Origin: Clostridia bacterium
GTDB taxonomy: Bacteria > Bacillota > Clostridia > TANB77 > CAG-508
Reading direction: 5' to 3'
NCBI GenBank assembly: GCA_017409455.1
Contig: JAFQSS010000028.1
Coordinates: forward strand, 11,007 to 75,006
DNA length: 64,000 nucleotides
The notes under the pieces are model-generated. The model saw only the letters and a list, made by a program, of their open reading frames with translations, was not told the DNA's origin and did no database searches. Below are positions 48,872-53,810 of the stretch, piece by piece. The position numbers and the translations under genes are program-made. Each line of letters opens with the position of its first letter. Position 1 is the stretch's first letter.

Positions 48872-49350
48872 TATTCCTCTCCCCTTATTGTAGCTACTGC
48901 AAATTCTTCTTTTTGAGAATTGCTTTTTATTTTTCTTCTCATTGTAACTTTAGTTCCTAAGCCTAATACTGATTCTACTTCCACATCATCCATAAAACTT
49001 TCCATTATTGTGAATCCCATTCCAGACCTTTCTAAATTAGCTTTTGTTGTATATAGTGGTTGTTTTGCCATTTCTACATTTTCAATCCCTTTTCCTGAAT
49101 CAGATATTTCTATAAATACTTCTTTTTCTCTTATTTTACAGATTAGTTTTACAATTCCTTGTCTTTCTTCATATCCATGAATTATTGAATTTGTAACAGC
49201 TTCTGATACTGCTGTTTTTATGTCTGCAATTTCTTCAAGTGTTGGATCTAGCTGTGCCACAAATGCTGCTACTGCTATTCTTGCAAATGCTTCATTGTTT
49301 GATTTGCTTAAAAATTCTATTTTCATTTCATTGTCATATGTATTATTCAT
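48871..49350 (-). CDS. spoIIAB: anti-sigma-F factor (serine kinase) SpoIIAB
   Basis: Start at [13 protein letters not shown]; HATPase_c motifs ([27 protein letters not shown]). The track ORF's 30-aa N-terminal extension is read-through of the repeat. Confidence 0.85.
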
Positions 49351-49714
49351 ATTGCACCTCCTTGATAATTTGGGGACGGTCCTTTTTTTCACGAATTTTG
49401 GGACAGTCCTTCCTTTCAGGAATAATTCTTTGTATCCCACTCATTTCAAATATTTTTCTTACTGGTGTTGTCATGTTTGCGACTTGAACTTTTCCACCTA
49501 GCATATTAGCTAACTTATACCTTCCTATGATTAGCCCTATTCCTGCACTATCCATAAAAGAAACATTGTTAAAATCAAATATAATTTCTTTTGGCATGTA
49601 TCTTTCAATTTCATTATCTAATTTCCTCCTTATCTTTTGTGCTGTACATTCATCTATTTCTTCATCCATTTTGAAGATTAATTGCTTGTCGTCTTTTTTA
49701 TAGAAACTTTCCAT
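49343..49714 (-). CDS. spoIIAA: anti-sigma-F factor antagonist SpoIIAA (STAS domain), C-terminus encoded by a repeat element
   Basis: STAS core with phospho-serine motif ([17 protein letters not shown]). After MSGIQRIIP, the last ~22 aa ([24 protein letters not shown]) are translated from repeat 49367..49416. Confidence 0.8.
49367..49416. repeat. type-2 palindromic repeat, 2 tandem units, inside the spoIIAA 3' end
   Basis: aatttggggacggtcctttttttcacgaa / ttttgggacagtccttcctttc. Confidence 0.9.
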
Positions 49715-49793: not shown

Positions 49794-49819
49794 TGTCGAA
49801 TTCATAGAAGTTTTCGACA
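49794..49819. promoter_or_regulatory. pair of inverted Spo0A boxes upstream of the spoIIA operon
   Basis: TGTCGAA at 49794..49800 (+) and TTCGACA at 49813..49819, each preceded by ATAGAAGTTTT; 80-105 nt upstream of the spoIIAA ATG. Confidence 0.5.
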
Positions 49820-49896
49820 AAGCAAAAAAAGAAAGCACAAACTTGAAATTTCAAATTTATGCTTTCTTTTAGGTTGTGTTTTTTCAGTGAGCAGTG

Positions 49897-50682
49897 CTAC
49901 TTTAAAAGCACCAAAACTCCAGAGCTGTCGAATTGAATATGGTACGGATCATAGTTGTAACTGACACAAGCCACAGGATAATTGCTCCCATTATCATTGA
50001 AATTACCGCCCACCAGCGCATAACCGCCTTCACGGGTTACAATTTTGTAGCTGTTCCCCTGTCCATCACAGAATCCACCACACTTTCTTGCTCCCGTTTT
50101 TTCAATAGAATGAGTAGCTCCAGGTGCATTCCTGTAGTTACCTGCACTCGAAGAATCATTTGCAACATAGTCGAGTGTCCACAGACCATTTACGATGCGC
50201 AAAGCATACCAGATAAACAGTTCATGCAGATTGCTCAAACGAGAGTCCCTTTCGGGCGCATACTCTTTTGCTATCTGCATCCACTGGTTGCAAGAAAATC
50301 TTACGCCTACATCTTGATTAGCCTCATAGTAAACCTTTTCTTTATGAACGGATGGTTCCATATGGGCAATCCAGTAGTCATAATTGACTGCTTTAATTGC
50401 TTCTCTGACTCTTGTCAGAAAACTTTTTTCTCCGTCATTTTTTCCTTTTTGTTTTGCGAGCCAGTTCTTCACTTTTTCTCTATCTTCTACAGTGATTTTA
50501 GTGAAGAATTTAGCCTTGTCTCCAGTTTCCTCTACAGTTTCATTCTGTGAAAAAGTAGCCTTATCCTTCGACTTTTCAGAAGAATTAGGAATCAACCGTA
50601 AGATCTGTTCTCCATTTTCTACTGAGCTTAAAGTATAATGCATTCCTTCTGGTGTTTTTAACACAACTTCAAACTGTTCCAT
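49897..50682 (-). CDS. DGR target protein 1 (C-type-lectin/FGE-like fold inferred; VR1 at C-terminus)
   Basis: AAAGGAGG RBS before MEQFEVVLKTPEGMHY (track ORF begins 15 codons earlier); paralogue of 52550..53293; own TTGCAA-17-TATAAT promoter; C-terminal GGYALVGGNFNDNGSNYPVACVSYNYDPYHIQFDSSGVLVLLK. Confidence 0.85.
   Translation of the reverse strand: MEQFEVVLKTPEGMHYTLSSVENGEQILRLIPNSSEKSKDKATFSQNETVEETGDKAKFFTKITVEDREKVKNWLAKQKGKNDGEKSFLTRVREAIKAVNYDYWIAHMEPSVHKEKVYYEANQDVGVRFSCNQWMQIAKEYAPERDSRLSNLHELFIWYALRIVNGLWTLDYVANDSSSAGNYRNAPGATHSIEKTGARKCGGFCDGQGNSYKIVTREGGYALVGGNFNDNGSNYPVACVSYNYDPYHIQFDSSGVLVLLK
49908..50023 (-). repeat. DGR variable region VR1
   Basis: 116 nt, colinear with TR and without indels; 16 mismatches, 15 of them at TR adenines (coding strand). 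Confidence 0.9.
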
Positions 50683-50966
50683 TGTTTTCCTCCTTTTGTT
50701 ATAATCGTCAGTTTTTCTACATGACACTTTGTCATACTTTGTTATTATAACATATTATGTATGCTTTTGCAAATTCTTCAAGTACTACATCTCTATCGCA
50801 ATATAAAAAAGCATATATATATTCAATTTCTTAAATTTACTAACATATCTGCTTTTATAATTCATATTTACTTAAAATTTCTTTTAAGAAGGAATAGACT
50901 TCCTTTAATATCTAATAAATGTACTGTATATATTCCTTAAAATATATAATCTCGCTTAATATTAGA

Positions 50967-51082
50967 GCACCAAAACTCCAGAGCTGTTGTTTTGAATATT
51001 GTTTGGATTATTGTTGTAATTGACATCTGCCACAGGATAATTGTTTCCATTATTATTGTAATTACCGCCCACCAGCGCATAA
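50967..51082 (-). repeat. DGR template repeat (TR)
   Basis: Non-coding copy 19 nt downstream of the RT stop; in the VR frame it reads YALVGGNYNNNGNNYPVADVNYNNNPNNIQNNSSGVLV (16 AAY Asn codons in that reading; about 41 A in 116 nt by hand count). Confidence 0.9.
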
Positions 51083-51100
51083 TAAAAACCCAATTTAAGT

Positions 51101-52114
51101 CTATCCCTCTATATAAAACATACTTTTTCTTAAATTAAAAGAATCTGCATGTTTAACATAGCCTAGCCAACCTGCTATACTTCGTTGTATTTCAGGTAAT
51201 GTTATTTTTCCTTGTTTTAATAGCTTTGTATATCTCTTTAGTTTTCTTTTCATTCTACATTTACTTGTATGCCTTATTTTCATTCTTTTTTCATTGATTT
51301 TGTATCCACAAAAATTAACCCCTTGTATATCTTTAAAAATTCTTGTTTTTGAATTTAGCTGTAACCTTAATTTTTCTTCTAAAAATATATTTATAGATTG
51401 TAGCCATTCCTTTGCTCTTTCTTTATTCTCACACAATATGACTATATCATCCATATATCTATAATAATATTTGCATTTTAAAGTATGTTTAGAATATTGG
51501 TCTAATTCGTTTAAATATATATTTGCAAACATTTGCGAAGTATAGTTTCCTAATGGCAATCCTTTCATTCCTTCAGTGGATAGCAAAATTTCCCTTATCA
51601 GCCATAATAATTTCTTGTCTCTTATTTTTCTTTTTAAGATTTCCCAAAGAATTCTTTTATCTATATTTTGAAAATATTTAGAAATATCCATCTTTAATAT
51701 ATAGTAGTTATACCATTTGAACTTTGCACTTCTCATTCCTTTTTGCACATCTTTTGAAGCTTTGTGCATCCCTCTTCCTTCTATTCCTGCATATGTGGTA
51801 TTGATAAATTGCGTTACAAAATATGGCTTTATAAAATTTTCTACACACCACTGATGTACAATTCTATCTTTATAACTAGCAGCCCTAATAATCCTTTCTT
51901 TTGGTTCATATACTTTAAATTTTCTATATTTCCCTGGTTTATATGTACATTCTTTTAGATGCTTCTCGAGTTCTAGTAATTCTTGTTCTAATTTTAATTC
52001 AAAAATTATTACATCTCTTTTTTCTCTTTTTCCTCTTCTTGCTTTTTTATGTGCTAATAATAATTTTTCGAATGAAACACATTCTTCATATTTATTTCTT
52101 ATTGTTTTAGGCAT
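51101..52114 (-). CDS. DGR-type reverse transcriptase
   Basis: 337 aa; RT motifs incl. YRYMDDIVIL (YxDD) and LPLGNYTSQMFANIYLNELD (the [I/L]GxxxSQ motif characteristic of DGR RTs); no maturase, endonuclease or intron RNA domains. Confidence 0.9.
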   Translation of the reverse strand: MPKTIRNKYEECVSFEKLLLAHKKARRGKREKRDVIIFELKLEQELLELEKHLKECTYKPGKYRKFKVYEPKERIIRAASYKDRIVHQWCVENFIKPYFVTQFINTTYAGIEGRGMHKASKDVQKGMRSAKFKWYNYYILKMDISKYFQNIDKRILWEILKRKIRDKKLLWLIREILLSTEGMKGLPLGNYTSQMFANIYLNELDQYSKHTLKCKYYYRYMDDIVILCENKERAKEWLQSINIFLEEKLRLQLNSKTRIFKDIQGVNFCGYKINEKRMKIRHTSKCRMKRKLKRYTKLLKQGKITLPEIQRSIAGWLGYVKHADSFNLRKSMFYIEG

Positions 52115-52463
52115 TTTTTGCCTCCAACGCCTTGATTAATCCTCCTAACATTTTTCCTATTTCATTTAACAATTCATTACTATACTTATATTTCTTTTCA
52201 TCAATCCATTTTTGATTATACATTATTCTTATACAAATTCTTTGATAATATATATTACTATCAACAATATTATATATTTGTAATCTTTTATTTTTATCAA
52301 CCTTGCTCGCAAGAAGAATGTGTTTTAGCATTTCATACATACTTGTTTTTATTTCTGTTCCTATACTAAATTTTTCTGTTCTTGGTAATTTCAATAATAT
52401 TGTTAACATGTATTCTATGTATTTTTCAATTTTTACTATTATAACTAATTTATTATCATTCAT
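52107..52463 (-). CDS. avd: Avd-like four-helix-bundle accessory protein
   Basis: 118 aa from MNDNKLVII (GGGGGG RBS); basic helical protein whose stop overlaps the RT start by 8 nt, the usual avd position. Confidence 0.75.
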   Translation of the reverse strand: MNDNKLVIIVKIEKYIEYMLTILLKLPRTEKFSIGTEIKTSMYEMLKHILLASKVDKNKRLQIYNIVDSNIYYQRICIRIMYNQKWIDEKKYKYSNELLNEIGKMLGGLIKALEAKNA

Positions 52464-52549
52464 TTTATTTCCCCCCATAAAAAATAAAAAGAGAGAAACC
52501 TGAATTTTCAAATTTCTCTCTTTTGTTAGATTGTGTTCAGTGGTCAGTG

Positions 52550-53293
52550 CTACTTCAAAAGCACCAAAACTCCAGAGCTGTAGGACTGAATATCGTATGG
52601 ATGACTGTTGTAATTGACATCCGCCACAGGATAATTGTGACCATTATTATTGTAATACCCGCCCACCAGCGCATAACCGCCTTCGCGGGTTACAATTTTG
52701 TAGCTATTACCCTGTCCATCACAGAATCCGCCACACTTTCTTGCCCCAGTTTTTTCTAGAGAATGAGTAGCTCCAGGTGAATTCCTGTAGTTCCCTACGA
52801 TCGAAGAATCATTTGCAACATAATCGAGTGTCCACAGGCGGTTCACAATACGCAAAGCATACCAGATGAAGAGCTCATACTCGTTGCTCAAGCGAGAGCC
52901 TCTTTCAGGCGCATACTCTTTTGCCATCTTAATCCACTCGTTGCAGGAAAATCCTACGCCTACAGCATTACCTTCAGCATAATAAATTTTCCCCTCTGTG
53001 ACAGAAGGTTCCAGATTTGCAATCCAGTAGTCGTAATCAACTGCTTTAAGTGCATTTCTGACTCTTTTCAGAAAACTTTTTTCTCTTTCATTTTCGCTTT
53101 TTTGTTTCACCAGCCAGATTTTCACCTTTTCTCTGTCTTCTGCAGTAATTTGGGTGAAAAATTTAGCTTTGTCCCCGGACTTTTCAGAAGAATCGGGAAC
53201 CAACCGTAGTATCAGTTCTCCATTTTCTCCTATAGCTGCCTCATAGTGCATATCCTGAGGTGCTTCTAACACAACCTTTCTTAACCGTTCCAT
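52550..53293 (-). CDS. DGR target protein 2 (paralogue of target 1; VR2 at C-terminus)
   Basis: 247 aa; MERLRKVVLEAPQDMHY...; same 5' UTR/RBS as target 1; TTGAAA-17-TATAAT promoter overlapping the dtd 3' end. Confidence 0.85.
   Translation of the reverse strand: MERLRKVVLEAPQDMHYEAAIGENGELILRLVPDSSEKSGDKAKFFTQITAEDREKVKIWLVKQKSENEREKSFLKRVRNALKAVDYDYWIANLEPSVTEGKIYYAEGNAVGVGFSCNEWIKMAKEYAPERGSRLSNEYELFIWYALRIVNRLWTLDYVANDSSIVGNYRNSPGATHSLEKTGARKCGGFCDGQGNSYKIVTREGGYALVGGYYNNNGHNYPVADVNYNSHPYDIQSYSSGVLVLLK
52561..52676 (-). repeat. DGR variable region VR2
   Basis: 116 nt, colinear with TR; 13 mismatches, 12 at TR adenines. Confidence 0.9.
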
Positions 53294-53372
53294 TGTTTTC
53301 CTCCTTTTGTCATTATCAACAGTTTTCTACATAGCATTTGCTAGTATGCTAATTATTATATCACGTATTTCC

Positions 53373-53810
53373 TTATTTTTCAACTATAATCGTTACAGGT
53401 CCATCATTTAATAGCTCAACCTTCATATCAGCGCCAAAGATTCCTTTTTGAACCTCAATTCCATTTTTAGCACATTCGTCACAAAAATATTCATATAAAG
53501 GAATTGCTTCATCTGGTCTAGCAGCTTCAATAAAGCTTGGTCTATTTCCATCAGCACAATTACCATATAAAGTAAATTGTGACACTATAAGTAATTTTCC
53601 ATTTACATCTTTTAAACCTAGATTCATTTTATCATTTTCATCTGTAAAAACTCTTAAATTACAAACTTTTTTTACTAGATAATCAGCTTGTTCTTTAGTA
53701 TCTCCAACTTTTATTCCAACTAGTACTAAAAATCCTTTTTCTATTTCTCCAACTATTTTATTATCCACTTCTACACTTGCATTTTTTACTCTTTGTATAA
53801 CTACTTTCAT
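53373..53810 (-). CDS. dtd: D-aminoacyl-tRNA deacylase
   Basis: 145 aa; MKVVIQRV..ASV.V, SQFTLYG, GADM.V.L.NDGPVTI. Confidence 0.9.
   Translation of the reverse strand: MKVVIQRVKNASVEVDNKIVGEIEKGFLVLVGIKVGDTKEQADYLVKKVCNLRVFTDENDKMNLGLKDVNGKLLIVSQFTLYGNCADGNRPSFIEAARPDEAIPLYEYFCDECAKNGIEVQKGIFGADMKVELLNDGPVTIIVEK

Follow-up and report, generated by a model that had tools for sequence, protein, structure and literature searches.

The stretch of DNA analysed, hereafter the window, comprises 64,000 nucleotides of contig JAFQSS010000028.1 (positions 11,007 to 75,006 of the forward strand; assembly GCA_017409455.1, Clostridia bacterium), and coordinates are those of the window. Between dtd and spoIIAA it holds a diversity-generating retroelement (DGR): an accessory gene (avd), a reverse transcriptase (RT) gene and a template repeat (TR), with a target gene ending in a variable region (VR) on each side. 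We read the locus, with good confidence, as a chromosomal, non-phage DGR of avd-RT-TR order flanked by two self-contained target modules, whose products would be cytoplasmic hypervariable binding proteins. The order on the minus strand is target2/VR2, avd, RT, TR, spacer and target1/VR1, as an earlier note on this DNA had proposed, and every part was located:

53373-53810, minus strand: dtd, flanking gene
52550-53293, minus strand: target2, an open reading frame (ORF) of 247 aa encoding a leaderless variable protein with a predicted C-type-lectin (CLec) fold
52560-52676, minus strand: VR2, in target2, residues 207-245 of 247
52525-52559, minus strand: candidate initiation of mutagenic homing (IMH) site, comprising the VR2 3' end, the stop codon and the conserved post-stop TAGCACTG..CACTG; TR/VR homology ends here
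52107-52463, minus strand: avd, accessory gene, 118 aa from ATG
51101-52114, minus strand: RT, DGR reverse transcriptase, 337 aa
50966-51082, minus strand: TR core, 117 nt with 41 adenines
50808-50967, minus strand: RT-14 RNA (Rfam RF02921), directly 3' of the TR, filling the ~160-nt spacer
49897-50682, minus strand: target1, an ORF of 261 aa from ATG with a AAAGGAGG ribosome-binding site (RBS); paralog of target2
49907-50023, minus strand: VR1, in target1
49343-49714, minus strand: spoIIAA, flanking gene

The avd product matched NF033474 (Avd; E 1.8e-23, 82.8 bits against a cut-off of 80), PF22296 (bAvd; E 9.9e-20, 71.5 bits against a cut-off of 40) and phrog_3206. The RT matched PF00078 (RVT_1) and the DGR RT profile phrog_1423 (E 2.4e-123), and it carries LGNYTSQ at residue 188 and YMDD at residue 220, which correspond to the DGR-clade patterns [ILV]GxxxSQ and YxDD. 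When the hidden Markov model of the target family was run over the 64-kb window, no member beyond target1 and target2 was found.

A phage origin of the DGR and its targets was considered and rejected, given that 50,697 phage records and IMG/VR contain no relative of the target family. Phage DGR RTs, those of Bordetella phages included, share at most ~40% identity with the RT, and the genes flanking the cassette are housekeeping genes. Together these results indicate that the locus is cellular, not viral.

A duplication flanking the cassette might also be produced by an assembler that expanded or mis-joined a repeat, and the contigs of a related metagenome-assembled genome (L002 plus L006) do break inside the targets, so the repeat is hard to assemble. 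However, the two copies are only ~81% identical in their scaffold and also differ by a 15-codon indel and in their VRs. Two independent assemblies, one of them a 176-kb scaffold, are 100% identical to the window, base for base, over the whole locus. In the related genome, whose RT is 95% identical, the order is as in the window, and the L002 contig runs across target-avd-RT-TR-target. We give an artefact of this kind practically no chance.

Template repeat, variable regions and RT-14 RNA

Within the 117-nt core, VR1 has 15 of the 41 template adenines changed against one of the 76 other positions (Fisher p 2.4e-7), and VR2 has 12 of 41 changed against one of 76 (Fisher p 1e-5). The TR contains 14 AAY codons and 22 variable codons, which allow ~10^21 protein variants with no reachable stop codon.

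The two target proteins are 75% identical. Outside the VR their genes present 80.8% DNA identity, a synonymous divergence (dS) of 0.62 and a ratio of non-synonymous to synonymous divergence (dN/dS) of 0.23, and by these values target1 and target2 are old paralogs, both kept by purifying selection. The core of each target is 84-87% identical to genes in other genomes, and the paralog is not the closest relative of either. Despite this scaffold divergence, 75 of the 76 non-adenine positions of each VR are identical to the TR, where ~14 differences per VR would be expected without homing; both VRs must therefore have been overwritten from TR-derived sequence after the paralogs diverged. This rewriting is the strongest evidence that a single TR serves both targets, and the suggestion that one TR could serve a target on each side is thus borne out by adenine-specific differences in both VRs.

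The TR and the VRs diverge directly after GGTGCT. The sequence that follows the stop codon is conserved in VR1, VR2 and two related loci (L008 and L017), and it is kept together with a 17-20-bp hairpin in both copies and in relatives, although the hairpin may be a terminator only. The earlier note let the duplication cover the 5' untranslated region (UTR) with the RBS, the ORF and about 70 nt of 3' flank. The RBS region as quoted, the ORF and ~73 nt of 3' flank (49824-49896 against 52481-52549) were recovered, while the upstream limit lies farther out than claimed, ~90 nt before the ATG, and takes in the -10/-35 promoter. An extension as far as the 3' end of dtd was not accepted, given that, beyond the -35 box, the two copies are too weakly similar for a call.

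The spacer behind the TR is occupied by an RT-14 RNA, which scored 78.6 bits against a gathering score of 48.1 and covered model positions 1-144 of 144. RT-14 was found in the same place after the TR in three related loci (L002, L003 and L004), which makes four loci with the window. It has been reported that the RT-10 motif sits in the TR-RT spacer of BPP-1, with speculation that DGRs are also served by other RT motifs (Weinberg et al. 2017, PMC5737381). The RNA found here agrees with the published RT-14 in being a full-length match above the gathering score that adjoins an RT gene; no specific role is named for it in PMC5737381, whereas here it begins at the last bases of the TR in four loci, which supports a role as the DGR spacer RNA. 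By analogy with RT-10, we infer that RT-14 is the spacer or priming RNA of the avd-RT-TR layout.

The mechanism is that of a standard DGR. In common with the DGR of BPP-1 (mtd-avd-TR-brt) and its target Mtd, there are an Avd, an RT with DGR motifs, adenine mutagenesis from TR to VR, a VR in the last ~40 residues of a (here predicted) C-type-lectin fold, a hairpin after the VR, and a structured RNA adjoining the TR, which is RT-10 in BPP-1 and RT-14 here. In contrast to BPP-1, the window's DGR is cellular rather than phage-borne, follows the avd-RT-TR order and has a target on each side. In contrast to Mtd, the target is a stand-alone protein of 250 aa with no tail-fibre domains and no HMMER-detectable sequence similarity.

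Target modules and the fate of the cassette in relatives

The regulatory elements of the two target modules are as follows:

53355-53383, minus strand: target2 promoter, TTGAAA, 17 nt, TATAAT, upstream TG; best in the promoter scan (11/12)
53332-53351, minus strand: target2 5' stem-loop near the transcript 5' end, followed by the conserved GTAGAAAACTG and then the RBS (RNAfold)
52487-52524, minus strand: target2 3' hairpin, 17 bp and a T-run (terminator scan; -21.5 kcal/mol)
50744-50772, minus strand: target1 promoter, TTGCAA, 17 nt, TATAAT, upstream TG; 10/12 in the promoter scan
50720-50736, minus strand: target1 5' stem-loop, ATGAC..GTCAT (RNAfold)
49827-49870, minus strand: target1 3' hairpin, 20 bp and a T-run (terminator scan; -24.5 kcal/mol, z -4.3)

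These elements make each target a complete transcription unit: a sigma-A-type promoter and a 5' stem-loop precede the ORF, and a terminator hairpin follows it. No other minus-strand site in the region resembles a promoter as closely as these two, and both have an extended -10 (TG). The -35 box of target2 overlaps the dtd stop codon, and family members in other genomes are preceded by a promoter of the same layout. The stems of the two 3' hairpins differ by compensating changes, and that of target2 is likely a terminator, a DGR target-site hairpin or both. Promoter, 5' stem-loop, strong RBS and 3' hairpin recur around ~45%-identical family members in unrelated genomic contexts.

A MAFFT alignment of the 5' UTRs was out of structural register for covariation, and the stem-loops were folded per sequence with RNAfold instead. 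An equivalent stem-loop with different stem sequences was obtained in 13 of 15 family 5' UTRs, and equivalents are present in L008, L014, L016, L017, L020-L022, L003 and L004. The stem-loop lies 7-10 nt past the -10 box, next to the conserved GTAGAAAACTG, and its stems differ between copies with the pairing kept. Many family copies also have a small palindrome, ACATA-A-TATGT, in the promoter spacer. The stem-loop could be an mRNA-stabilising hairpin and the palindrome an operator.

The GC content of the targets is 39-43% in the window and in eight of ten other loci measured (L008, L012, L014, L016, L020, L010, L021 and L022; the exceptions are L001 with 36% and L005 with 33%), in genomes of ~29%. 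That of avd and RT is 22-27%. The gap is 11-14 points.

The RBS of avd lies ~20 nt past the target2 hairpin with no promoter between them, so avd-RT-TR is probably transcribed by read-through of that hairpin. The proposed course of events would be the following. Each module would be transcribed from a sigma-A-type promoter with an extended -10 into an mRNA with a short 5' stem-loop, a strong RBS and the ORF; the VR would form the C-terminal end of the ORF, followed by the conserved post-stop sequence and the long terminator-like hairpin. Having no strong promoter of its own, avd-RT-TR would depend on the read-through of the target2 hairpin, and the TR-carrying RNA would continue into the structured RT-14, which, by analogy with the BPP-1 spacer (RT-10/Sp), probably positions or primes reverse transcription by an RT-Avd complex. 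The adenine-mutagenised cDNA would then replace VR1 or VR2, a process proposed here from an outcome that is seen in the sequence pattern.

The target family is large, with 699 representatives at E <= 1e-3 in a full HMMER scan, or ~700 clusters at 50% identity. Nearly all of the 150 representatives listed are 200-290 aa long, and no Pfam domain recurs in 122 representatives. The neighbourhoods of relatives were examined within ±8 kb of each match, and at the dtd/spoIIA locus three states were observed. The full cassette is present in the window and in the related genome represented by L002 plus L006. In L017 the targets are in tandem and a clean deletion of ~1.57 kb has removed the core: the hairpin is still there, and behind it the avd RBS with ~7 initial codons runs directly into the distal portion of RT-14. 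A single target is present in L008/L009, L012/L013, L014/L015 and L019. Compared with the window's TR, the lone target of L012 has a VR changed at 25 of 41 adenines and at only three of 76 other positions; this VR was therefore shaped by a near-identical template. A comparable tandem state is seen in L003, which belongs to a distant lineage and another genomic context and keeps 46 avd codons between two targets.

By these comparisons, the locus loses its cassette in relatives by internal deletion. The single-target loci may have arisen by recombination between the repeats or may be ancestral, and either route leaves orphan targets.

Further arrangements were observed among the relatives. An inverted copy of TR and RT-14 lies 3 kb from the two targets in L003 (2668-2940, minus strand), with no RT on the 7-kb contig; this TR differs from the neighbouring VR at 16 of 38 adenines and at eight of 79 other positions. 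L017 (1725-3487) has the two kinds of target swapped relative to the window, with the target1-like gene nearer to dtd and the target2-like gene nearer to spoIIA, and P0252 presents a core near-identical to that of cluster P0032 with a different N-terminal hairpin and no linker insert. Both this swap and this mosaic suggest that modules have recombined.

At other places, members of the family stand alone or in groups of two or three next to housekeeping genes of no related kind, and no RT was found within 7-8 kb of such scattered genes. Their neighbours include tsf, leuS, patatin, Thoeris and veg/prmC, among others. A conserved partner gene was sought and rejected, given that neighbours vary by lineage: the patatin adjacency (L004 and L005) is one syntenic case, and Thoeris occurs once.

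The flanking arrangement was also compared with that of related RTs. Across 77 metagenome loci with such RTs, one target upstream of avd-RT-TR-RT-14 is the norm, and no downstream family target was found, within flanks of up to 4 kb that are short or absent on some contigs. The flanked two-target layout is thus, in these data, a real but minority form, and an exception in the RT's own lineage. Among 372 DGRs, 13% had two targets, and the avd-RT-TR order corresponds to architecture B2; target positions vary, and non-phage DGRs typically have remote targets (Wu et al. 2018, PMC5758913). The window's locus shares with the multi-target DGRs of architecture B2 the avd-RT-TR core, the two targets, the chromosomal location and the remote or orphan targets of non-phage lineages. 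It differs in that its closest RT relatives have a single upstream target, and a target with its own promoter and terminator on each side is a minority layout.

One related DGR, in L004 (9484-14765), has an RT 82% and an avd 90% identical to those of the window and an FGE-sulfatase-type target, which has the N-terminal hairpin in common with the window's family. It adjoins HTH_36/DnaD_N and Mob_Pre genes, a block that is absent from the syntenic L005, so this DGR lineage is also carried by a mobilisable element.

Diversification in nature was examined in a 17-member cluster (>=90% identity), of which 11 members were aligned. Nine of these are full-length and have the same N-terminus, and they vary chiefly at VR positions with few scaffold substitutions besides, a distribution that is that of natural diversification. 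Together with VRs reset to the TR at non-adenine positions, it gives indirect support for ongoing mutagenic retrohoming.

The same loci raise the question of whether the window's cassette is a decaying or silent relic, in which the VR/TR pattern records past activity and the targets are now ordinary paralogs. Loss is frequent, with avd-RT deleted in L017 and L003 and several relatives left with a lone target at the locus, and an identical deletion fusing avd to RT is present in at least 10 human-gut contigs. In these (L061-L070), avd codon ~82 is fused to RT codon ~194 with target, TR and RT-14 kept, a widespread dead cassette. The 90% clusters of both window proteins are single-member, and each VR has one non-adenine mismatch. 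Given that decay of related cassettes is common, this one could have been silenced recently, and the compared assemblies, which may stem from the same sample, are identical across the locus including the VRs. Against a relic, all ORFs are intact and the RT catalytic motifs are present, the TR keeps its 41 adenines and 14 AAY codons, RT-14 is full length, and the VRs agree with the TR at 75 of 76 non-adenine positions though the scaffolds are 19% diverged. We consider a relic unlikely.

Fold and cellular location of the targets

Searches of the targets against Pfam, NCBIfam, PHROGs, PADLOC and PDB sequences gave no match, whether single sequences or a 122-sequence profile were used, and neither PF03781 (FGE-sulfatase, of the formylglycine-generating enzyme type) nor any other curated CLec model matched either target or the 122 family representatives. 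The AlphaFold2 model of target2, built from a 45-homologue alignment, is a confident single body with a predicted local distance difference test score (pLDDT) of 92.4 and a predicted template modelling score (pTM) of 0.81. It comprises a beta-hairpin (residues 15-33), a low-confidence linker (34-45), a strand and helical hairpin (46-84), and a lectin-type domain from residue ~86 to the C-terminus.

The best PDB matches of the model in Foldseek were TaqVP (E 1.4e-4, probability 1.0) and Mtd, followed by the FGE-type enzymes EgtB, SenA and PorK. The family profile aligned in HHalign with the L004 relative, which is a PF03781 match, at 96.7% probability, and a fold search of BFVD gave weak matches to tail-fibre lectin domains only (E 1e-3 or worse). 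The VR (residues 207-245) forms the final strand-loop-helix-strand segment, as in Mtd and TaqVP. The CLec/FGE-like fold that the earlier note had anticipated is therefore what the model predicts for the targets, with two DGR variable proteins as its top matches. TaqVP (Thermus aquaticus, PDB 5vf4), the best of them, likewise belongs to a cellular DGR and carries its VR at the C-terminus, on a CLec fold. It differs in its 381 aa, in other N-terminal elaborations and inserts, and in 14% identity and a TMq of 0.40, values that limit the likeness to the lectin core.

The ~100-aa N-terminal domain of the earlier note did not survive as such. When the N-terminal 88 residues were modelled alone, they were poorly defined (pLDDT 73.6, pTM 0.37), and we conclude that the region is not a separate domain: the beta-hairpin, linker and helical hairpin are confident only jointly with the lectin domain. 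The extra ~14 residues ascribed to target1 are right as a net figure, and they prove to be 15 residues in target1 plus one in target2, within the low-confidence linker, whose length varies patchily across the family. The products would be soluble proteins of ~28-30 kDa with a C-type-lectin fold and ~40 variable residues at the C-terminus, preceded by a beta-hairpin, a flexible linker of variable length and a helical hairpin.

Neither target has a hydrophobic N-terminal stretch, a lipobox or a transmembrane segment by hydropathy and sequence inspection, the highest Kyte-Doolittle mean over 19 residues being 1.06 and 0.85 in the two targets. Upstream of the starts, the in-frame extensions hold stops or polar residues only and encode no hydrophobic stretch; the check for an earlier start encoding a signal thus came out negative. 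Among 241 family sequences no credible signal peptide or membrane segment was found: seven passed the hydropathy cut-offs, all at internal stretches or at seemingly mis-called starts. This absence across 241 relatives suggests a family property, not an annotation slip, and the claim that the targets have no export signal holds. The targets most likely remain in the cytoplasm as hypervariable binding proteins.

As a best guess of low confidence, their ligands may be variable intracellular ones such as phage or mobile-element components. In L001 (7878-10223) a family member lies directly upstream of a Thoeris pair, the sole defence-system neighbour seen, consisting of ThsA with a Macro domain (PADLOC E 1.4e-79) and ThsB with a TIR domain.

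Some points weigh against cytoplasmic binding proteins as described here. The solvent exposure of the VR residues is inferred from the topology of the model only, and the targets may use a non-classical export route. The idea of intracellular ligands rests on the missing signals and on the one Thoeris-adjacent relative, and PADLOC matched neither target and gave generic RT models only for the RT.

The targets might instead be displayed outside the cell without a signal peptide, through spore-surface assembly from the mother cell, lysis or an unrecognised secretion route, and the DGR would then vary a surface ligand-binding protein as classically. Spore coat proteins do not require a signal peptide. 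The window's targets adjoin the spoIIA-sigF-spoIID-M23 block, another relative lies beside yabG and veg, and L020 (6111-8739), of a second and distant lineage, has a tandem of three family genes, all with a promoter and hairpin of their own, directly after spoIIAA-spoIIAB-sigF-spoIID-M23, on the opposite side of the same sporulation block. Because of this arrangement, a sporulation or spore-surface link is kept as a minor rival. Surface proteins are, moreover, most cellular DGR targets (Roux et al. 2021, PMC8144416).

However, the target promoters fit the housekeeping sigma-A consensus with an extended -10 (11/12 and 10/12) and, judged by eye, show no evident mother-cell sigma-E or sigma-K consensus. 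Each target is separated from spoIIA by its own terminator, and the surroundings of most family genes have nothing to do with sporulation. Pfam searches found no domain in the targets, hence no cell-wall-binding, S-layer or coat-protein domain. We therefore regard external display as distinctly unlikely.

With their sigma-A-type promoters and own terminators, the targets give no sign of co-regulation with spoIIA. Target1 is followed, ahead of spoIIAA, by a terminator and two Spo0A-box-like motifs; the motifs are inverted copies of TGTCGAA (49813-49819 and 49794-49800) and are presumably part of the spoIIA promoter region.

Proteins that remain in the cytoplasm have precedents among DGR targets. 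Most cellular targets carry transmembrane segments or signals, and those of the Candidate Phyla Radiation (CPR) and of archaea are without them, the genuineness of these non-membrane-bound targets being left open by Roux et al. (2021, PMC8144416). Predicted cytoplasmic targets in multicellular bacteria are fused to STAND or MoxR systems (Dore 2024, PMC10907252). The window's targets have in common with these, and with cyanobacterial signalling targets (PMC7517822), a DGR-varied CLec without an export signal, which implies an intracellular ligand. They differ from the bacterial cytoplasmic precedents, which fuse the CLec to a kinase, NTPase or other effector or sit in multi-gene conflict loci, in being a bare lectin domain with an ~85-residue N-terminal elaboration and no conserved partner gene, in a lineage of spore-forming gut Clostridia.

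The earlier note had called an apparently cytoplasmic, duplicated target next to spoIIA unusual. Two-target DGRs (13%), the avd-RT-TR order and predicted cytoplasmic targets have all been published, and the targets give no sign of co-regulation with spoIIA, so the description is too strong as worded. It is partly justified by what is distinctive here, a bare, leaderless, stand-alone lectin protein of an unannotated family in a spore-forming gut Clostridia host.

A bolder and improbable extension would make the targets an intracellular, pre-diversified binding repertoire of spore-forming gut Clostridia, akin to 'antibodies' without a fused effector, in which a few DGR cassettes vary scattered modules in trans. 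If true, target modules consisting of a promoter, an ORF and a homing hairpin around the chromosome would recognise changing cytoplasmic ligands.

The general understanding of how DGRs work is unchanged by these results. They tie the Rfam RT-14 RNA to a defined position, immediately after the TR, and the ~700 clusters at 50% identity, with no Pfam or NCBIfam model, could provide seeds for a new protein-family model. The full-cassette, cassette-deleted and single-target states form a natural series for DGR loss and for the origin of orphan targets. If the proteins stay inside the cell, the family would be a compact example of a Gram-positive gut bacterium directing DGR variation at an intracellular ligand.

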